Shown in pieces: positions 2,744-28,457 of a stretch of 40,963 nt of DNA. The stretch comes from a virus. Its lineage: Duplodnaviria > Caudoviricetes. Position 1 is the stretch's first letter. Every line of letters starts with the position of its first letter. A program made the translations under genes and the position numbers. The DNA is taken from IMG/VR virus record IMGVR_UViG_3300037424_001370, positions 1-40,963 of that record; one strand, given 5' to 3'. Under the pieces are notes generated by a model. The model was not told the origin of the DNA. It did no database searches and saw only the letters and a list, made by a program, of their open reading frames with translations.

Positions 2744-3105
2744 GGCGCCACCGCATCGAGTGCAGGCGAGCTGACCAGCAGCGCATCGACCTCGAGATGC
2801 GGCGTGCGCCCGAAGTCGTAGGTACGGACGCCGGTGATGTCGAACCGCCGGCCGGTGTCCGGGTTGTCGCGGATCCAGGCGCCCGCATCGATCGCGCGCG
2901 ACTCGAGGTAGATAACGTGGGTCGCGATCGTCGGGCCGGCCTGGCTCGGCAGGCCGCGCTCGCGGGCGGTCCGCGGCTGGATGAGCCCGGAGACCGTCTC
3001 GACGACGGGAGCGCCGGCGACCGGCATACCGTCGGCGTCGACGGTGCCCGAGTCGGTCGGGGTGACGATGGCGAGCGAGTGGATGAGGCGCGCCCTGAAG
3101 CTCAT
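2740..3105 (-). CDS. Head closure (head-tail joining/stopper) protein
   Basis: …DADGMP…GLIQP…THVIYL…RRFDITGV…HLEV pattern and syntenic position. Confidence 0.8.
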   Translation of the reverse strand: MSFRARLIHSLAIVTPTDSGTVDADGMPVAGAPVVETVSGLIQPRTARERGLPSQAGPTIATHVIYLESRAIDAGAWIRDNPDTGRRFDITGVRTYDFGRTPHLEVDALLVSSPALDAVAP

Positions 3106-3644
3106 CGGATCCACCCCCCGCTGCCGGGATGGAGGCTGGCCAGGATCGCCTCCCGGGTGGCGCCGTACGTCTCGACGCCCGATGCACTCGTCTCGGACCA
3201 GTCGCCGATGCGCTCGGCCGCGACGCCGATCTCGTCGGGCTCGAGATCGAGCGCCACGAGTTCGATCGCGACGCGGTCGCGCTCGCTGGCGTCGTCGACC
3301 ACCGTGAGCACGATGTCGACCGGCCCATAGAAGTAGGACGCCGGGTTGATGCCGGTCGCGAGCCGCTCGAGCATGAGGCCCGACGGACGCAGCCGGTAGT
3401 CGGTCGCGTCGAGCACGAGTGGCGACGAGCCCGTGGCCTGCTCGGTCACCGACACGATCGCGCTGGCGCGGCGGTTGAGCATCAGGAGCCGGCCGCTCGG
3501 CGAGCGGTGGGTCTCCGTGACGCTGCCGGCCGCGCCGGCCCGTTCGTCGATCGCGTCGTACGCAGCGTCGAGCAACCGCGTCAGGGCGTCATCGCCCAGA
3601 TCGGTCGTGATGTGCTCGCGCAGCTCGGCGACCGTGAGGGTCAT
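3102..3644 (-). CDS. Head-tail connector (gp6/gp15-like adaptor)
   Basis: LTVAELREHI…DDALTRLLDAA N-terminus and ERIGDWS motif. Confidence 0.85.
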   Translation of the reverse strand: MTLTVAELREHITTDLGDDALTRLLDAAYDAIDERAGAAGSVTETHRSPSGRLLMLNRRASAIVSVTEQATGSSPLVLDATDYRLRPSGLMLERLATGINPASYFYGPVDIVLTVVDDASERDRVAIELVALDLEPDEIGVAAERIGDWSETSASGVETYGATREAILASLHPGSGGWIR

Positions 3645-4002: not shown

Positions 4003-5463
4003 CTACTTGACCTGGAGGAGACGGAAGGCGGCCGCGGTCAACATGCCCGAGCCGTTGCGCCAGCGGGCGTACACGCCGCGCTGTCCCAGCGGCTCGCCGT
4101 TGCCGTTGAAGACCTGGGGGATGTACTCGACCGACAGCCCGACCCGATCGACGATGACGAACTGCTTGAAGTCCCCGAACAGCAGGATGTTCTTGCCCGT
4201 CGTCGAGGCCCCGGTGTCCATGGACGTGGACTCGTTGCCCGGGAACCCGCGCAGGTTCTTGTTGGTGGTGCTGTAGATGGAGTCGGCCGGCTGGCCGGCG
4301 GTCCCGAAGCCCGCGGCGGTCATGTAGGTCGCGAGCTGTGCGAGGAAGCGAGCACGGGCCCGGAACCGCGGCGGCAGGGCGGCGATCAGACCGTCGATGT
4401 CGTCGAGGTCTGTCGTGGCGAGGACCGCGGTCAGCACGATGCTGGTGGCGGCCGTGACGACGGCATGGATGATGCCGTCGGGCTCGGTGACGCCGACGCC
4501 GAGCTCGAACTTGTCGGCCTCGAGCACGTCCTTCGCGTCGCGGACGAGCGTGCCGACCTCGGACAGGACGGCCGCGGGGCCGAAGTCCTCGGCGTACTCG
4601 GCCGTGAACGGCACGAACACGTGGGCGCGCACGGGCGTGATGCCCGGATCGTCGAGGTCGGAGGGCGCGCCGTCGGAGGCGGCCGCGGTCTCTGCGGCGT
4701 AGGCCGCGGTCACGCCGGCGGACGTGATCGCCTGCCAGCTCTTGGTCGTGATGGTCTCGATCCGCGCGATGCCGCGCAGCTCGTTGAGCGCGCCGTCCGA
4801 CGTCAGGACGATCGTCGGGTCGATCGTGAACGGCAGCTGGAAGCCGCCGTCGGCATCGGTGTACGTCTGGAGGGCCGCCTGCAGGCGCTGGGGCACGGCA
4901 TGGAGGCCGCCGGCCAGGTAGGCCGAGATCGCCTCCTGGTACTCGGGCGACCCGGTGCCGATGATCCGGCGCGCCACGGCGCCCGCGTTGCGGTAGCGCG
5001 TGGGTGCCAGGAGCTTCTCGACGCTGGCCTTCGCCTTGGCCTCGTCGGCCGTGGCCGGGAAGGACGCCTGCTCGAGGACGCGCATCGCGCCGTCGCGGTA
5101 GGCCTGCGGCAGGTCGTCGACGGAGCCCACGAGCTTGCGATAGCCCGCCAGGTCGAAGATGTTGTCGGGGACCTTCTTGACGCTGAACGGGCTGAAGACC
5201 GTCGAGGCGGCCGATTCGGCGGCACCCTTGGCGATCGCCTGCCGGATCCTCGAGTCGCGGATCTTGAGCTCTTCGATCGTGGCGCGGACCTGCGCGAGCA
5301 TGCCGTCGTCGCCGGCGATCGCCTCGAACTCCTCGCGCTGCGCCTCGGTCATGGCGGCGCCATCCGCATCCGCGTCCAGCTCCTGCATGCGAGCAACGAG
5401 CTGCTCTTCGGCCGCCACGTGGGCGTCCAGGCCCCGAAGGCCCTTGATATCGATCTCGATCAC
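4003..5463 (-). CDS. Major capsid protein, HK97 fold, with N-terminal scaffolding (delta) domain
   Basis: Coiled-coil N-terminus; DGGFQLP…, LFGDFKQFVIVDRVG, GQRGVYARWR…AAFRLL motifs. Confidence 0.95.
   Translation of the reverse strand: MIEIDIKGLRGLDAHVAAEEQLVARMQELDADADGAAMTEAQREEFEAIAGDDGMLAQVRATIEELKIRDSRIRQAIAKGAAESAASTVFSPFSVKKVPDNIFDLAGYRKLVGSVDDLPQAYRDGAMRVLEQASFPATADEAKAKASVEKLLAPTRYRNAGAVARRIIGTGSPEYQEAISAYLAGGLHAVPQRLQAALQTYTDADGGFQLPFTIDPTIVLTSDGALNELRGIARIETITTKSWQAITSAGVTAAYAAETAAASDGAPSDLDDPGITPVRAHVFVPFTAEYAEDFGPAAVLSEVGTLVRDAKDVLEADKFELGVGVTEPDGIIHAVVTAATSIVLTAVLATTDLDDIDGLIAALPPRFRARARFLAQLATYMTAAGFGTAGQPADSIYSTTNKNLRGFPGNESTSMDTGASTTGKNILLFGDFKQFVIVDRVGLSVEYIPQVFNGNGEPLGQRGVYARWRNGSGMLTAAAFRLLQVK
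4792..4823. repeat. 32-bp perfect inverted repeat, copy 1 (within capsid gene)
   Basis: gccgtccgacgtcaggacgatcgtcgggtcga is the exact reverse complement of 7233-7264. Confidence 0.95.
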
Positions 5464-6629
5464 CGGAGTTTCCCTTTCATGCGCTTGTTCCAGGCCGCGT
5501 CGGGTCGACCAGTGGACGCGGCCGTGGCCGCGATCGGGAGGGAGGTGGGCTCGGCGCGCGCGACCGCCGGCTGGCGTGTCTGCGCACCCCTGGGCTGGAG
5601 GCGGCGCACGGTCCCCTCGAGCGTGTCGATCCGGTCGATCAGACCGACGGCGAGCGCCTTCTTGGCGAGGAGCGTGCGGCCTTGGCCGTAGTCCGAGGCG
5701 ACGACCGACGTCGTGACGCCCCGGCCCTTCGCGACGTCCGTCACGAACATGCCGTAGAACTCATCGACCTGGTCCTGGATTGCCGAGCGTGCCTCATCGG
5801 TCAGCGGCTCGAAGCTGTTGCCCTCGGTCTTGAAGGCCCCCGCGCTGATGAGCGTCGTCTTGACGCCCACCATCTCCTGCGCCTTGGACACGTCTTCGTG
5901 GGCCGCGTACACGCCGACCGATCCGACCTCGCCCGAGGGTGTCACCACGAGCTCGTTGCCCTGGGCGGCGAGCCACAGGGCGGCGGATGCGATGAGCGTG
6001 TTGCCCTGGAACACGATGGGCTTGGCACCACTCCGCACGGCACGCAGCTCGGCCGCGAACTCCGTGATCCCGTCGACGGAGCCGCCCGGCGAATCGACGT
6101 CGAACACGATCGCCGAGACCTCCGGATCCGCGAGCGCGTCGCGCAGCGCCATGCGCAGGCCGTCGATGCTCGTTCCGCCCGACATATCGCTCATCAGGCT
6201 CATCCGCTGGCTGATGAGCCCGTACATCGGGATGATCGCGACCGAGCCCGCGACGTCGTACGGCTTGTTGCCGGCACGGTCGCCGTTCTGTGCGCGCGCC
6301 GCCTCGAGGCGCTCGGCCATCTCGTCACCGGAGAGAACCCCGCCCGTGGAGCGGAAGCGGAGCAGGTCCACCATGAACGTGAGCATCTGCGCCTGGACCG
6401 CCCACGGCCGCTCGAGCAGCGCCTTCGTCACGTGGCGATAGGAGCGCGGTCCGATCAGCGCCCCGAGCTCGGGCCCCTCGTCCTGGGCTCCGCTGCCCGA
6501 ACCGTCGTCGAGACTGACCGCGTCGTGGTCGGCCATGAGGACGTCTGGCGTCGACGGGCGAGCCTCGTTGCCCGGGCCATCCGAGACCGCATCGACCGTT
6601 GTCGTGTCGTGGACAGGATTCGCTGGCAT
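5460..6629 (-). CDS. Prohead maturation protease, S49 (SppA/ClpP-like)
   Basis: VDSPGGSVDG, IASAALWLA and GEVGSVGV motifs; RBS GGAGG. Confidence 0.92.
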   Translation of the reverse strand: MPANPVHDTTTVDAVSDGPGNEARPSTPDVLMADHDAVSLDDGSGSGAQDEGPELGALIGPRSYRHVTKALLERPWAVQAQMLTFMVDLLRFRSTGGVLSGDEMAERLEAARAQNGDRAGNKPYDVAGSVAIIPMYGLISQRMSLMSDMSGGTSIDGLRMALRDALADPEVSAIVFDVDSPGGSVDGITEFAAELRAVRSGAKPIVFQGNTLIASAALWLAAQGNELVVTPSGEVGSVGVYAAHEDVSKAQEMVGVKTTLISAGAFKTEGNSFEPLTDEARSAIQDQVDEFYGMFVTDVAKGRGVTTSVVASDYGQGRTLLAKKALAVGLIDRIDTLEGTVRRLQPRGAQTRQPAVARAEPTSLPIAATAASTGRPDAAWNKRMKGKLR

Positions 6630-6676: not shown

Positions 6677-6735
6677 GCCCCTGACGGACCCCTGACATTT
6701 GCAGCCGATGCACGTCAGGGGGTGCGTCAGAGGCG
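6677..6735. promoter_or_regulatory. Divergent pair of GTCAG-N6/7-GTCAG motifs (imperfect inverted repeat)
   Basis: gcccctgacggacccctgac (6677-6696) faces gtcagggggtgcgtcagaggc (6714-6734). A third copy is at 7355-7378. Confidence 0.55.
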
Positions 6736-6760
6736 AGAGTCCGAGTGGTACCATCTGGGG

Positions 6761-6890
6761 AGCGCCGCCAAGAAAGATGGCGGAAGCCAAATCCGATCCG
6801 GGCCGGCTCCCTAGTCGCAATCGAAGGACCGGGCACCCGCGGGCGGCGGCGCAAGAAGCCGAGACTTGAGGGTCTCGGCTTCGTCCTTTC
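6761..6890 (+). ncRNA. Candidate structured small RNA / attenuator
   Basis: Extended -10-like TGGTACCAT at 6746-6754, closing stem GCGCCGCC/GGCGGCGC, followed by a terminator hairpin. Confidence 0.45.
6855..6890 (+). terminator. Intrinsic terminator-like hairpin
   Basis: Perfect 11-bp stem gaagccgagac/gtctcggcttc followed by gtcctttc. Confidence 0.7.
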
Positions 6891-6898
6891 GGAATGCA

Positions 6899-6917
6899 TC
6901 AGAGGCGCTGAATGGCG
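6899..6917 (+). repeat. 19-bp direct repeat, copy 1
   Basis: tcagaggcgctgaatggcg is identical at 7370-7388; the pair brackets the capsid-fragment gene. Confidence 0.9.
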
Positions 6918-7024
6918 TGTTGCCATCCGGCATACACTGTCGAGGACGGCGGTTGCAGCGCCGGATTTTCATGCCCCGCCGAGTCCTGCAACGACGAGGC
7001 GGGGCTACCCGTCTGGAGGATGGG

Positions 7025-7351
7025 ATGGACGAAATCAAACGGCACCTGATGGAGATCTCGAAGAGCGACCCCGCGGCGGCGCTTAGGCAGGGCGAGACGC
7101 TCTCGCCAATCTACGAGAGAGCCTTTTTTCGCACCCTGTATGGCGCCAAGAGGCGCGATCTCAGTCGCCAGCAGAGAGCGATCCTCGACCGCCAGAGGAC
7201 TGTCGATGGTGGCTACCCCATGCCGCTTCGGCTCGACCCGACGATCGTCCTGACGTCGGACGGCCAGGGTGAACCCGCTTCTCAGATCCTGCGCGCACTC
7301 GGCATTGAGGAGACCCAGACTGCCACCACACGCAAGGAGGGACTGCTCTAG
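7025..7351 (+). CDS. Truncated major-capsid paralog (108 aa), antisense to the late operon
   Basis: RBS GGAGGA at 7015-7020. SPIYERAF…DGGYPMPLRLDPTIVLTSDG aligns with capsid SPEYQEAI…DGGFQLPFTIDPTIVLTSDG. Confidence 0.8.
   Translation: MDEIKRHLMEISKSDPAAALRQGETLSPIYERAFFRTLYGAKRRDLSRQQRAILDRQRTVDGGYPMPLRLDPTIVLTSDGQGEPASQILRALGIEETQTATTRKEGLL
7233..7264. repeat. 32-bp perfect inverted repeat, copy 2
   Basis: tcgacccgacgatcgtcctgacgtcggacggc encodes DPTIVLTSDG in the same codon phase as the capsid copy. Confidence 0.95.
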
Positions 7352-7369
7352 ACTCACGTCAGAGGTGCG

Positions 7370-7546
7370 TCAGAGGCGCTGAATGGCGGCGATGATGTCG
7401 GGTGACGGCGTGCCTGAGCTCAGCCTCCGCTTGACGGTGAACCAGATGTCGACGCCGGTGAGGTCATAGGGATCGCCAGCGGCATCGGTCAGCGCCAGCT
7501 CGTAGGTCTCGGTGTCGCCGCGGATTGCGACCAGCTCGCTCATCAT
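7370..7546 (-). pseudogene. Truncated BppU-N-like virion accessory gene (58 aa)
   Basis: Manual translation MMSELVAIRGDTETYELALTDAAGDPYDLTGVDIWFTVKRRLSS…IQRL*. The stop lies inside the 19-bp repeat. Confidence 0.55.
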
Positions 7547-9135
7547 CTCGCCCCCTCGCTGAGCAGGCGGTAGACCTGGCGCTCCGTGCGCTCGATCCGC
7601 GCGGCGATCGCCGGCACCGACAGCCCCTCGGACCGCAGCCGGCGGACGTGTCCCGCCGCGTCCTCGACCTGCGGGAGCACGGGCTCGAACAGGCTCGGGA
7701 ACGTCACGACCAGCGGGTGATCGGCCGGGACCTCGCTGCCAAGGGCGATCGTGCCGAGCCGGGCGAACGGGTCGTCGACGGCCCAGAAGTCGCGCCGGGC
7801 CCTGTATCCGACCGGTGACGCCGGCAGCGAGGTGCCCGGCGCCTGGAGCTGGACCGAAACCAGGCCCGTGTGCTGCAGCCGGGTCATGTCCCCGGCGACG
7901 ACCGCATCGATCGCGGACTGCGGCTCGAAGCCATCCTTGATCAGCTGGCCGATGGTCGACGCGTTCTTCTGGATGATGTCGGCCTGGTCCTTCACGTCCG
8001 AGCGCAGGAACGCGATGTCACGTTCGTCGTACCAGAGGCGCGTGCCGGGCGGCGGCGTCACGATCGTCTCCAGGCTGCCGGAGATGTCACCCCACAGCGG
8101 TCGGAGCGTTGCGTCGCCAACCAGGCGCGCCGCGCTGCCGAAGTTGCCGGCGTTGAGCGAGCTTCCGGCCAGGCCTTCCGAGAGTGCCACCACGACCGGG
8201 TGCATACCGGTGAGGGCGGCGATCCGCGTCTCCGCGGCGCCCATGAGCTTCGTGTAGTCCATCTGCTGGAAGTTCATCCCGATCGGCGTCGGCTCGATGC
8301 CCATGCCGAGGTAGACCGTCTTCCAGGCGTTCAGCGCGCCGCGATGCTCCTGCTCGAACAGCTCGATCCACTCGAGCGCGTCCTCCTTCGACATCGATGG
8401 CGGGAACTTCAGGGCGAGGTTCGGCGTCGCGGCGTTCGTCATCAGCTGCCGCTTGTGGGTGGTCGCGGCGTTGTCGCCCATGACCTCGCGGATCCCTGCC
8501 ACGAGCAGGCTGATGCCGCGGTTCCGGGCGAGCGGATCCTTCGTCGGGGCGAAGTGCGCGACCTCGTCGGCCCCGTAGACCTGCTGGGCGCTGCCCGAGC
8601 TCGGCCCGCCCGGCTGGTGCCCGTAGCCGATGATCCGCGCCTTCGGATCCCACAGCCCGAACTCCGAGGGTCCGCTCTTCGAGCCGTAGGCGATCTTCGT
8701 CCAGTCGGGCCGCATCCGTGTGAACGCGTCGGGCTGGCCGAGGATGAAGCCACCACCACCAAGGTCGGCATCGAGGATCGCCCATTGCAGGAGGTCGCTC
8801 GTCGTCTGGCCGGGCTCCGGCCGTTCAAGCAGCCGCAGATCGGGCGTGCCGAACAGCGCGCCCGGCCGCCCGCCTCGCAGCTGCTGGAACTGGAAGCGCG
8901 CCTGGCTGAACAGGCGGGCCCGGACGGCGAGGCACGCGAACACCACGCTGTTGCGCAGGTAGGCGCCGACCACGAGGCTCGTGAACGAGCCGTCGGGCAC
9001 CTCCTCGTCGATGGGACCCAGCGTTGTCTGCAACGCGAAGGGCAGACCCTCGAGCCCCAGATGAGATGTCCAGTCGTCGAAGCTCAGGGCCGAGCGCCCT
9101 GAGCGGGGCGCGAGCGTCTCAATCAGCGCGGCCAT
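7543..9135 (-). CDS. Portal protein (HK97 family) with C-terminal extra domain and HTH
   Basis: NSVVFACL…, EVAHF…RGISLL, NAWKTVYL motifs; C-terminus RRLRSEGLSVPAIAARIERTERQVYRLL. Confidence 0.92.
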   Translation of the reverse strand: MAALIETLAPRSGRSALSFDDWTSHLGLEGLPFALQTTLGPIDEEVPDGSFTSLVVGAYLRNSVVFACLAVRARLFSQARFQFQQLRGGRPGALFGTPDLRLLERPEPGQTTSDLLQWAILDADLGGGGFILGQPDAFTRMRPDWTKIAYGSKSGPSEFGLWDPKARIIGYGHQPGGPSSGSAQQVYGADEVAHFAPTKDPLARNRGISLLVAGIREVMGDNAATTHKRQLMTNAATPNLALKFPPSMSKEDALEWIELFEQEHRGALNAWKTVYLGMGIEPTPIGMNFQQMDYTKLMGAAETRIAALTGMHPVVVALSEGLAGSSLNAGNFGSAARLVGDATLRPLWGDISGSLETIVTPPPGTRLWYDERDIAFLRSDVKDQADIIQKNASTIGQLIKDGFEPQSAIDAVVAGDMTRLQHTGLVSVQLQAPGTSLPASPVGYRARRDFWAVDDPFARLGTIALGSEVPADHPLVVTFPSLFEPVLPQVEDAAGHVRRLRSEGLSVPAIAARIERTERQVYRLLSEGAR

Positions 9136-23425: not shown

Positions 23426-23631
23426 GCCGGCACCTCGCGCACGCGCAGCTCGACGTGCCACACGCCGTCCCTGACCTCGACGGTCAGCCCGCGCGTCTTC
23501 ACGCGGTAGCCGAGCGCCTTGGCCTCGGCGCTCGCGGCCTTGGCGGCCTCCGCCTCAGCGGTGCCGAGGACCTCGAACACGGCCGCCTGCGGGCTGCCCG
23601 GCCAGACGTCCGCGACGCGCAGGAGGCTCAC
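23422..23631 (-). CDS. Hypothetical protein
   Basis: Coupled; bracketed by 22-bp direct repeats. Confidence 0.6.
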   Translation of the reverse strand: MSLLRVADVWPGSPQAAVFEVLGTAEAEAAKAASAEAKALGYRVKTRGLTVEVRDGVWHVELRVREVPA

Positions 23632-24254
23632 GCCGGCACCTCGCGCAGCAGGCCGGGGTCGAAGCGCAGGCGGTCCACGTGCCGTTCCCACGGATCGAGC
23701 CAGGGGACGCCCAGCGCGGCGAAGAACGCCTCCTCGGTGGGCGTCGGGACGACGCGGTTGTGGTACAGCACCCGCCCGTCCTCGACCCGGCGCCAGTGGC
23801 GCTTGCAGTCGGTGACCAAGCGCGTGTTCCAGTCGCCCGGGCCCGTGCGCAGGGCGAAGATGCAGCCCCAGCGCTCCGCGTCCGTGATGAACAGGTCGAC
23901 GGGCATGTCCCGGTAGACGAGGGCCTTGTAGGCGTCGCCCATCCGTCGGCCCGTCTCGACCGTGCCGTCGCGCCGGTGGATCTCGACCGCGCGCGGCGCG
24001 AGCTCACCCTCGGCGAGGCCCGCGGCGATCGTCTCAGCGAGCAGATCGAGGTCCTCGACGTCCTCGCTCCACAGGCCGCCCCGGACCTCGACATGCCGCG
24101 GGATCGCCACGATCTCGATGTCGTGGACCTCGCCCTTGCGGCGGCGGACGGACCCTGCGATCTCGATCCGCTCGCAGGCGCCCGCGAGCAGCCCCACGAG
24201 CTCCGTGGCCACCAGGTGGGCGTCGGCCCAGCGGATCGCGGCGCCGGCGCTCAC
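23628..24254 (-). CDS. Minimal family X DNA polymerase (palm and thumb)
   Basis: IAGSVRRRK…DIEIV, VDLF, RTGP, EEAFFAALGVPWLDPWER. Confidence 0.88.
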   Translation of the reverse strand: MSAGAAIRWADAHLVATELVGLLAGACERIEIAGSVRRRKGEVHDIEIVAIPRHVEVRGGLWSEDVEDLDLLAETIAAGLAEGELAPRAVEIHRRDGTVETGRRMGDAYKALVYRDMPVDLFITDAERWGCIFALRTGPGDWNTRLVTDCKRHWRRVEDGRVLYHNRVVPTPTEEAFFAALGVPWLDPWERHVDRLRFDPGLLREVPA

Positions 24255-24373
24255 CGGAACACCGCCCGCCACAGCGAGCGCGAGCACGCGATGCACATCG
24301 GCCACCGGGCGGGACGCCGGCGACGGCAGCCGATGGTGCAGCAGCGGTAGAGGCGGATGCGGCCGGTGCTCAC
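24251..24373 (-). CDS. Small Cys-rich protein (40 aa)
   Basis: CCTIGC…CIAC; GTGA-coupled on both sides. Confidence 0.5.
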   Translation of the reverse strand: MSTGRIRLYRCCTIGCRRRRPARWPMCIACSRSLWRAVFR

Positions 24374-26278: not shown

Positions 26279-27087
26279 GCCTCGCCCTCCGACGCCTTCC
26301 GGCGGGGCCGCTTGGCGACATCGCGGATGCGGCCGAGCTCACGCAGGAGCAGCTGGCCGGCGTCGCTCTCGATGAGCTCGGTGAAGTCCCCGCGTCGCTC
26401 GAGGCGCGCGTAGGCAGCCTGGAGCGTCTCGTCGGGGAGGACCAGGCCGTTGAAGCGGGACACGTCCCGGGTGACCGTGACGTTCTCTCCCAGCTCGCCG
26501 GAGGCGGCCCCTTCGACCAGCGCCTCGCCGACGGCGCTCGCGATGTCCTCGAACGAGACGGGGTCGCCCTGGTCCTCGGCGGGTCCCTCACCGCGCTGGA
26601 GCGCCCGCACGAACGCAGCCGTGTCAGGCAGCGCCGAGCCGAAGTGGCGCGCGACGTCGTTGAACCCCGCGTAGTCGTGGTCTCGGGTGGAGAGCTTCCA
26701 GGTGCCCTTGACGAACGCCGCGTCGAAGTGGAGCAACAGGTGCAGCAGGAGCGCGTCCCGGCTGTCGTCGTCGAACAGGTCCCACACCTGCTTGCGGACC
26801 CACACGATCGCGTCGAGGTCCACCAGATCTCGCCACACGGGCGATGCCTTGACGCTCTTGCCGATCACCCCGCATACGAGGCGCTCGGTGGCCGTATCGA
26901 AGGGCTTGACGTTGAAGAGGAACCCGAAGCGCAGCTCGCCCTGGGTGGCGGCCTCGCGGATCGGGTAGAGCTCGTCGAACCGGCCCATGAGAATCCCCGC
27001 TCGCGCCTTGAGCGCCCGGTCGAGCAGGAACTGGCGCCCGTCGACGTCGAGCTGGAGTGTCTGGGGCTCTGCGGCCACGTGGGTCAA
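26275..27087 (-). CDS. Phage metallopeptidase-like protein, catalytic Glu absent
   Basis: W…DALLLHLLLH…HDYAGFNDVARHFG. Confidence 0.6.
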   Translation of the reverse strand: MTHVAAEPQTLQLDVDGRQFLLDRALKARAGILMGRFDELYPIREAATQGELRFGFLFNVKPFDTATERLVCGVIGKSVKASPVWRDLVDLDAIVWVRKQVWDLFDDDSRDALLLHLLLHFDAAFVKGTWKLSTRDHDYAGFNDVARHFGSALPDTAAFVRALQRGEGPAEDQGDPVSFEDIASAVGEALVEGAASGELGENVTVTRDVSRFNGLVLPDETLQAAYARLERRGDFTELIESDAGQLLLRELGRIRDVAKRPRRKASEGEA

Positions 27088-28457
27088 CCTCCCTTCGCCA
27101 GCTCGCGGGCAAGGGCCGCGCGCTGGGTGTCATCGAGCCGGGCCACGCCCGGGAACAGCTGCGCCGCGATCGACTTCGCGTACGCGGTGGAGATCCGGTG
27201 CTCGCCCAGCCAGGCGGTGAAGGCCTCGCTGGACAGGCTCTCGGGCTCGGCCTCATCGACGGCGCGCCAGACGGCGGCCTCCTCGTCATCGGACAGTGCC
27301 GGTCCGTCGCCCTCAGACGGCCCCTGCGGGGCGGGAGCGCCCGGTCCGCTGTCCGTGTCCGCCTCGGCCGGCGTCGCCGCAGGGGCGGGCTGGGGCGCTG
27401 GCTCGGTGGCGAATGAGGGGATGAGCCGGTGCACGTTCTCCCAGTCCGCCTCGGACAGGGTCGACATGCTGAAGCCCTTCACCGGGACGCCCCTCATGCC
27501 GGCGGCGATGGTGCGGATCGCGTCGGCCTCGAGCCCACGCTCAGCGGCCTCGGCGAACGCGCGCGCCTGCCAGTAGCCATCCTCTCCGGCGACCTTCGCA
27601 GGAGCCGACCGTCGGCGGCCCGATGCCGGGATCTCCGGTGCGGCGTTCCGCCTGGCGGGGGGCGGCTGGGGCGGGGCGGACTGCTCGGCGATCGACGGCC
27701 GCGGGCCCTCGATCTGCGGGACCGGGGTCAGGCGACGCTCCGGTGGCGCACCCTCGGCGAGGGCCGCCACGGGAATGCCGGCCGGCTGGCCGGCGAGCAG
27801 GAACTCGCCCGGCGTGATGCCGAGGTCCAGGCGCGGCACCGCGAACCGCAGCGTCTGCGGCTTCCCGTCCTTGCCCGGCCGCTTGACCGACCGCTGCTCG
27901 AGGAGGAGGCGCGCCGGGACCATGACGCCGCGCCCGGCGGCCAGGCCCATGATCTCGATCGCCCCGCCGAGCTCGCGGGCGGCGTACCAGCCCTGCGTGT
28001 CGAGCCGCCAGAGCGCGAGTCCGGGCAGGTCCCGGATCATGAGCGAGAGCCGGGTGTGGATCTCGCATGTCCCCTTGACCTTGGCCGCCCGCTCGTCCGG
28101 GTCACACAGACAGGGCTGCTCGGAGAGGTGCTCGGTCTGCCCATCGCACCTGCGCTGGCATCCGCCGGCCGACCACAGCTCGAAGTGCTGCGAGAACGCC
28201 ATCGCGTTGGGAGGCACGATCACGTCGAGCGCGGTCGCCTCGGTGATGACCTCCCACTGCCGGCCGGCCGGCGCCTCCCAGGGCGTGACCTTGCCGCCGA
28301 ACAGGCCCGCGGCCTCCTCGATGCGCCGGCGGTCGGAGCTGGTGAGCCGGAAACGATCCAGCTTCTCGGGGCGGGTCCGGCCGCCGCTGGTCGGGACCTG
28401 CTGGCCGATGCGGATACGCCCCGCCTCCGCGATCCCCCTCTGCAAATCGATGATCAC
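27084..28457 (-). CDS. Gp3-like (phiC31 RDF-related) recombination/replication protein
   Basis: GRIRIG…KLDRFRLTS…CQRRCDG…TRLSL…WRLDT.GW.AA.EL. Confidence 0.7.
   Translation of the reverse strand: MIIDLQRGIAEAGRIRIGQQVPTSGGRTRPEKLDRFRLTSSDRRRIEEAAGLFGGKVTPWEAPAGRQWEVITEATALDVIVPPNAMAFSQHFELWSAGGCQRRCDGQTEHLSEQPCLCDPDERAAKVKGTCEIHTRLSLMIRDLPGLALWRLDTQGWYAARELGGAIEIMGLAAGRGVMVPARLLLEQRSVKRPGKDGKPQTLRFAVPRLDLGITPGEFLLAGQPAGIPVAALAEGAPPERRLTPVPQIEGPRPSIAEQSAPPQPPPARRNAAPEIPASGRRRSAPAKVAGEDGYWQARAFAEAAERGLEADAIRTIAAGMRGVPVKGFSMSTLSEADWENVHRLIPSFATEPAPQPAPAATPAEADTDSGPGAPAPQGPSEGDGPALSDDEEAAVWRAVDEAEPESLSSEAFTAWLGEHRISTAYAKSIAAQLFPGVARLDDTQRAALARELAKGG

Follow-up and report, generated by a model that had tools for sequence, protein, structure and literature searches.

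To our knowledge, the prophage defenses that block virion assembly act on tails or on terminase, and the known capsid-derived interfering protein, Ccm, is a full-fold protein of a satellite. The closest described counterparts of the locus reported here are Tab of Pseudomonas phage JBD26, Ccm of SaPIbov5, and the seqA/CI RNA leader of P4. Tab lies on the minus strand within the late operon, is served by a promoter of its own, and blocks virion assembly of related phages; it targets the tape measure protein and has no similarity to known domains (PMC10884400). Residues 83 to 355 of Ccm form a full HK97 fold, and this satellite-encoded protein interferes with phage head assembly (PMC5052747). The P4 elements seqA and CI shut off expression in lysogens (PMC4825925).

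The DNA analyzed here (the window) is a stretch of 40,963 nucleotides from a temperate siphophage record coding for terminase, portal, S49 protease, capsid, and tail proteins and for a tyrosine integrase, all on the minus strand. We infer that the host phylum is Chloroflexota, since the closest capsid genes in genomes sit in three Chloroflexota MAGs (50 to 52% identity; best 3 of 9 loci). The region of the head genes is organized as follows.

4003..5463, minus strand: major capsid protein, HK97 fold with delta domain.
5460..6629, minus strand: S49-type head maturation protease.
6678..6735, no strand: four YGTCAGRGG motifs in two inverted pairs, upstream of the protease gene.
6855..6882, no strand: 11-bp perfect inverted repeat (a self-match), a terminator-like hairpin that separates the promoter of the cassette from the late-gene side; a scan for such signals made no call here.
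6895..6917, no strand: left copy of a 23-nt direct repeat, which with the right copy brackets the leader and the mini-gene.
7025..7351, plus strand: mini-gene; residues 1 to 54, approximately, would correspond to the last helices of the capsid delta domain and about 55 to 103 to the N-arm and the first stretch of the mature HK97 fold.
7233..7264, plus strand: 32-nt tract within the mini-gene, identical to positions 4792 to 4823 of the phage's own capsid gene (opposite strand) and covering DPTIVLTSDG.
7355..7388, no strand: segment with the right copy of the 23-nt repeat (7366 to 7388), which overlaps a 24-nt copy of 6711 to 6735 with two YGTCAGRGG motifs.
7370..7546, minus strand: 58-aa open reading frame (ORF) that overlaps the portal stop, matches positions 9 to 53 of 123 of phrog_1084, and ends inside the right 23-nt repeat.
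7543..9135, minus strand: portal protein with a C-terminal helix-turn-helix extension.

An earlier note on this DNA had singled out a 108-aa plus-strand ORF with a strong ribosome-binding site (RBS), lying between the portal and protease genes and against the late operon, and all of this is as claimed: a GGAGG at 7015 to 7019 ends 5 nt before the ATG, and the 58-aa ORF lies in the same gap between the two genes. The encoded protein is basic (pI 9.2). The region is not an assembly artifact, because contigs of a second sediment run, X2, match it without difference; three of these (6814 to 7030, 7001 to 7241, and 7238 to 7399) tile the leader and the gene without any mismatch, and run X1, which may be the source of the record, matches 7235 to 8033, again with no difference. 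An in-frame ATG inside hairpin 2 of the leader, which would add 18 residues, was not taken as the start because it is out of frame in a related phage with the same leader (L128).

The mini-gene resembles Tab in being small, on the opposite strand of a late operon, in a temperate phage, and behind its own predicted promoter (a -10-like box and a leader, found in seven lineages). It is unlike Tab in being cut from a capsid protein and in that no anti-protein was found in the loci of relatives. The 58-aa ORF at 7370 to 7546 does sit like anti-Tab, on the late strand, and homologs of it were seen neither in the relatives' loci nor beside the second mini-gene described below. Homology to Tab is unlikely, because the mini-gene is capsid derived.

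Capsid homology covers nearly the whole mini-ORF. Residues 25 to 104 align in BLASTP with residues 170 to 242 of the window's capsid protein (33 of 80 identical, 41%; E 6e-10), which confirms the alignment first made by eye, and the three motifs quoted for it are present. A capsid-family profile scores the mini-protein at 49.9 bits (E 1e-17), and tblastn matches it to 62 phage records, with all 40 among those listed annotated as capsid or head; Pfam and PHROGs alone gave no match. Record L103 is collinear with residues 4 to 107, ungapped over 104 residues at 34% identity. The only solved relative is the Mycofy1 capsid (PDB 9LW6), whose residues 197 to 278 correspond to mini-protein residues 7 to 82 (E 8.5e-5) and which is also the best structural match of a model of the window's capsid protein (pLDDT 87). 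The solved mature chains of Mycofy1 hold 288 to 293 of 543 residues, so the mature shell would begin near residue 251, opposite mini-protein residue 55, and PF05065, which runs over 280 positions, starts at capsid residue 206, or mini-protein residue 62. From these two points, roughly half of the mini-protein would come from the final part of the delta (scaffold) domain, and the remainder would be N-arm plus the first stretch of the fold. The first approximately 140 delta-domain residues are absent, and the ORF ends 47 codons past the motif at the PF05065 start, with the A- and P-domains and the tip of the E-loop absent. Alone, the mini-protein gives a low-confidence helical model (pLDDT 54).

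The mini-protein is thus homologous to the capsid family and does not hold a complete mature HK97 fold (N-arm, E-loop, P- and A-domains). Its earlier description as a fragment of the capsid fold is not supported in that wording: the protein covers the end of the delta domain and the N-arm and not the part of the fold that makes the shell, the A- and P-domains being absent and roughly the first half being delta domain, outside the mature fold. Ccm, which had been offered as a precedent, is similar in being capsid derived and in having a delta-like N-terminal part, but the mini-protein is not a member of the Ccm group: at 108 aa in all, it lacks the full HK97 fold, has only about 50 residues of it, could not serve as a shell subunit, and is encoded not by a satellite but by a phage with its own terminase, portal, protease, capsid, tail, and integrase genes. 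It also differs from the Mycofy1-type capsid family (PF05065, phrog_10, PDB 9LW6) in being basic, where the family is neutral or acidic.

The phage's own capsid protein ranks only 37th of 120 by BLAST score against the mini-protein and 79th of 199 segments by identity (29%, versus 37.5% for the best). The nearest full capsid is thus 37.5% identical, compared with a nearest-neighbor minimum of 53% within the family, and by these sequence measures the mini-gene is an old, diverged capsid derivative rather than a recent duplicate of the capsid gene beside it in this phage. The claim that it is a fragment of the phage's own capsid therefore survives as to capsid origin and not as to source; only the 32-nt tract is shared exactly. 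By codon usage, an identity of this length has a chance of 0.15 to 0.7%, a figure worked out for an identity that had already caught the eye. Elsewhere, nine natural copies of the tract peptide match at 20 to 27 of 30 bases. Both mini-proteins equal the capsid of their own phage just after DPT, as do 10 of 200 and 7 of 200 segments. The tract likely stems from local gene conversion with the phage's own capsid gene.

The search for intact homologs proposed earlier yielded one. In two identical records (L210 and L213), the same leader precedes an ORF of 79 aa, which shows 57% identity to mini-protein residues 29 to 75 and lies counter-oriented between the capsid region and the head-tail adaptor of a phage whose capsid protein is 29% identical to that of the window and whose protease is S78-like (below the Pfam cut-off, on a cut ORF). 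The 90% cluster of this homolog has 7 members. The two mini-proteins are sister tips in trees made with FastTree (0.89, among 202 sequences) and IQ-TREE (87.5/79, among 46), both on long branches, such that the grouping may be partly artifact. They share P65, L68, and R69, which occur in 0 of 200 capsid segments, and core charges of +5 and +6, above the capsid family maximum of +2. The two genes differ in length and outside the core.

A ratio near 1 had been named beforehand as a mark of a remnant; the two mini-genes give a pS of 0.67, a pN of 0.28, and a pN/pS of 0.42 (bootstrap 0.22 to 0.73; Fisher p 2e-4), for two sequences over 39 codons in three ungapped blocks chosen from a pairwise alignment, which favors conserved codons. 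Different codons are used at 15 of 25 identical residues. Of the columns conserved in the family at 90% or above, the window's mini-protein retains 11 of 13, and of those at 80% or above 16 of 19. At the 60% level it retains no more than 24 of 44, which equals the family minimum, and all of the lost top columns lie after residue 82. When natural segments were decayed in simulation to 70% identity (3,000 runs), the nine motif residues were kept in 2% and a stop-free frame in 22%. By these comparisons, decay is unlikely and the two genes show purifying selection. They support the earlier view of a counter-oriented accessory gene with its own signals; it derives from the delta-domain/N-arm junction of an HK97-type capsid protein and is maintained by selection, in two lineages as known. 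In record L261, a helix-turn-helix ORF resembling the portal tail (about 3070 to 3390, plus strand) ends head-on against the second mini-gene, in the same helix-turn-helix-then-cassette order as in the window.

Upstream of the mini-gene is a conserved module with these features.

6928..7027, plus strand: promoter-leader module of about 100 nt, in seven phage lineages and always against the late genes; the other copies are L213 3498 to 3597 (minus), L208 3460 to 3560, L212 3460 to 3559, L253 3492 to 3592 (minus), L259 1460 to 1559, and L266 1501 to 1600.
6933..6938, plus strand: predicted -10 box TAnnnT, 8 nt before hairpin 1 in 7 of 7 copies; not called by a consensus scan.
6947..6963, plus strand: hairpin 1, 5-bp stem and 7-nt loop (6952 to 6958).
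6973..7005, plus strand: hairpin 2, stem of up to 13 bp and 7-nt loop (6986 to 6992) complementary to loop 1.
7008..7024, plus strand: predicted hairpin 3, covering part of the GGAGG at 7015 to 7019 and folding in 5 of 6 copies.

The layout is nearly ungapped among the copies: the TAnnnT box is followed at a distance of 8 nt by a hairpin of 5 bp and, after a further 9 nt, by one of 13 bp, and then come the predicted hairpin over GGAGG and the ATG, with the start codon of the mini-gene exactly at the leader's site; no conserved -35 was seen in the copies. The two loops are complementary in all seven lineages. Across six copies, 96% of cells pair, and 100% in the loop-loop helix, in a structure derived from the same sequences; changes on both sides occur in 4 of 7 loop-loop pairs and in 11 of 25 of all pairs. 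None of 500 shuffles reaches this pairing, and slid controls pair at 28 to 47%. The L266 leader, found after the structure model was made, has a new loop pair that is again perfectly complementary, and loops of different phages mostly do not cross-pair. Hairpin 3 is beyond the covariation test because its core is invariant. The leader is best described as a compact RNA with predicted kissing loops, strong covariation, and no Rfam family, as no Rfam model scored above a cut-off. The SAM-VI riboswitch model (RF02885) weakly matches hairpin 2 with the RBS and start codon (24.3 and 23 bits, where the cut-off is 57.5). That model includes neither hairpin 1 nor the loop-loop helix, the cargo is not SAM metabolism, and the window copy has no such match. 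With the P4 seqA/CI leader and IsrK (PMC4825925), the module shares a promoter-proximal position, complementary elements, and a place ahead of prophage accessory genes. It differs in its cargo, in the lack of an Rfam match, and in that no third, downstream copy of the loop-1 sequence was found in about 800 nt of the window and of L213, where each loop sequence has one exact copy.

The leader is associated with more than one cargo. Among the portal-protease gaps of 15 relatives, the DNA upstream of the mini-gene ATG recurs in L126 and L128, in the same slot and counter-oriented, ahead of unrelated small genes. A pattern made from the leader gave 6 viral loci in three lineages, a further scan gave 8 loci, including one new real copy (L253) and one chance locus, and a covariance model added L266 (96 bits), the one new lineage among 35 records. 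On 151 genomes the model matched only a training copy, and 1 of 401 genomes of the phylum carries the leader in a prophage-like region (G043). Record L252 was left out of the set, having no -10 box and no start codon after the Shine-Dalgarno sequence, as were L206 and L203, both weak model matches. The cargo is a capsid fragment in 2 of the 7 lineages, a common domain of unassigned family in 2, and unrelated genes in 3, with no clear family among those scanned. With unrelated cargo in 5 of 7 cassettes, the slot marks an accessory gene and not a capsid inhibitor.

Other observations on these cassettes are as follows. The cargoes of L259 (1557 to 1961, without Pfam match) and L266 (1598 to 1951) share a region of about 60 residues, scoring above 1,000 of 1,000 shuffles, which we take to resemble a phage ABA-sandwich domain. 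The relatives L128 (3254 to 3520, minus strand) and L126 (3570 to 3920, minus strand) have in common a further counter-oriented gene where the cassette ends; it includes a hydrophobic stretch and matches no family. In run X2, a single 103-nt contig (depth 2.8) joins the last 30 nt of the leader and the start codon (window 7001 to 7030) to other sequence, which hints that the sediment contains a second cassette with different cargo.

The flanks of the cassette are rich in repeats. All six copies of YGTCAGRGG in the window lie within 6678 to 7376, and the group may be operator-like; relatives have short repeats of other sequence at the same place as the 6678 to 6735 motifs. The 58-aa ORF is likely truncated, probably as a result of the cassette's arrival. 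A recombinase-site or shufflon reading of the repeats is without support, because the operator-like repeat pattern had zero matches in viral contigs; a joint across the 23-nt repeats was sought in the X1 and X2 contigs, and none was seen. The end of the portal (7543 to 7830, minus strand) consists of a small domain resembling the gene after the capsid gene, plus the helix-turn-helix. Most close relatives have portals with similar tails, followed by short phage-specific direct repeats ahead of the protease gene, and portal-linked DNA-binding control of head genes is possible on this sequence pattern. In L141 (1639 to 4161), L185 (2021 to 4324), and L191 (2429 to 4810), portal matches are split by about 1 kb, possibly by introns, inteins, or insertions. 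Elsewhere in the window are a protein matching the DNA polymerase beta thumb (23628 to 24305, minus strand) and a Gp3-like recombination directionality factor (27084 to 28457, minus strand).

Further mini-genes were sought at several levels. A protein search for stand-alone homologs recovered only the mini-protein itself among 8 candidates and none among 445 longer ones. In 1.84 billion proteins there were 37 matches. The 36 besides the mini-protein were a 119-aa capsid piece at read level and proteins of 296 to 1,166 aa, called capsid by length (three also by sequence, whereas another that was read is a repeat protein without relation to capsids). Motif patterns, which demand residues absent from the 79-aa homolog, hit 107 viral loci in which each re-found frame runs at least 118 codons past the motif, and metagenome motif matches with an upstream RBS pattern were full capsids in 6 of 6 cases. 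No second copy was found in 205 loci. A scan with the alignment of both mini-proteins gave 17 viral loci (15 long capsid frames and 2 of the known homolog) and matches in 13 of 401 genomes, none a convincing mini-gene; the ESM Atlas gave matches below 0.9 or none, and the mini-gene is absent from its slot in the close relatives examined. The blanks of the protein searches weigh little, because four of them missed the real homolog, which the leader search found.

The reading that we tentatively prefer, at somewhat short of an even chance, is that the mini-protein is made in lysogens and poisons the head assembly of related phages, in a locus built like Tab; it is preferred because of the Tab-like layout together with the conserved capsid motifs. 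Transcription from the prophage would start at the predicted promoter of the leader, as for Tab, and the poorly folded basic protein would dock where the delta helices and N-arm of a neighboring subunit would. Bringing no shell domains, it would cap the growing capsomer or prohead of an invading relative. When the phage itself grows lytically, late transcription from the opposite strand and the predicted RBS hairpin would keep the gene silent, or the capsid protein would swamp its product. The integrase, which marks the phage as temperate, fits this head-assembly poison. Speaking against it, the A- and P-domains carry most capsomer contacts and are absent from a mini-protein that is itself modeled at a pLDDT of 54, no antidote was found (the 58-aa ORF is placed like anti-Tab but had no match in the relatives' loci), and a protein that tracks its own capsid would poison its own phage. 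The small number of lineages, two, and the unrelated cargo in most cassettes also count against it.

Conserved capsid motifs would also be kept in a mimic that is made early and soaks up a host sensor or protease reading the delta/N-arm region of the capsid, without triggering it. Such an anti-defense decoy appears unlikely. It would account for the retention of family-invariant residues while the rest diverges and for the equality with the phage's own capsid at the N-arm, and in its complementary elements the leader is reminiscent of P4 seqA/CI. Among defense systems, CapRel (PMC13728456), Thoeris (PMC12578639), and Avs7/8/10 (bioRxiv 10.64898/2026.01.04.697583) respond to capsid proteins as triggers. 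However, Avs7, Avs8, and Avs10 bind the A-domain (bioRxiv 10.64898/2026.01.04.697583), and the Thoeris escape residues are in the P-loop (V273) and at W84 (PMC12578639); the A- and P-domains are missing from the mini-protein, and the host is only inferred.

The charge and the shared residues of the two mini-proteins raise a different prospect, that of an exapted peptide kept for a job apart from capsids, for example binding to nucleic acid or to a host protein as a basic helix. Both copies are strongly basic and share new residues absent from capsids, and in 5 of 7 lineages the leader drives small genes of other kinds. Nevertheless, an unrelated job would require neither a conserved core made up of the capsid-invariant motifs nor an own-capsid tract with a refreshed look, and we consider this rather unlikely.

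A helper or brake in the phage's own head assembly (an internal scaffold piece, a modulator of size or timing, or a decoy substrate of the maturation protease) seems improbable. The mini-protein spans the predicted delta/N-arm cleavage junction, and in both phages the gene lies among head genes, but the RA-LSL-type junction is altered in both copies, the gene points against late transcription, and the close relatives examined do without it in that slot. The two proteases are unrelated, S49 in the window and S78-like, with the reservations given above, in the phage of the homolog, which weakens the earlier idea that the mini-protein acts as a decoy for the S49 protease encoded next to it.

A decaying, functionless remnant of a capsid gene captured by recombination is very improbable. 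It would explain the flanking 23-nt repeats and adjoining truncated ORF, the GC3 of 0.78 (versus 0.89 to 0.95 in head genes), and the divergence of the copies in length and outside the core. Against it stand the intact homolog that follows the same leader, the synonymous differences at 15 of the 25 identical residues, the collinearity with a full capsid protein across 104 residues without a gap, the decay control, and a start codon exactly at the leader's site.

On sequence grounds, the mini-gene would represent a new form of assembly-interference moron, and the leader is apparently undescribed; a full-text literature search, with most subscription journals and supplements outside its scope, brought up neither a stand-alone delta/N-arm gene nor this leader. 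Taken as a whole, it is possible, if doubtful, that temperate phages of Chloroflexota carry a mobile counter-oriented cassette with an undescribed kissing-loop leader, whose cargo here is a scaffold-plus-N-arm inhibitor, matched to its own capsid by gene conversion and capping the proheads of competitors. A piece of about 100 residues of delta domain and N-arm that selection keeps as a separate gene would amount to a natural HK97 head-assembly inhibitor or mimic of minimal size and would offer a convenient probe for the roles of the delta domain and N-arm before maturation, and the leader marks accessory-gene slots in uncultured phages.
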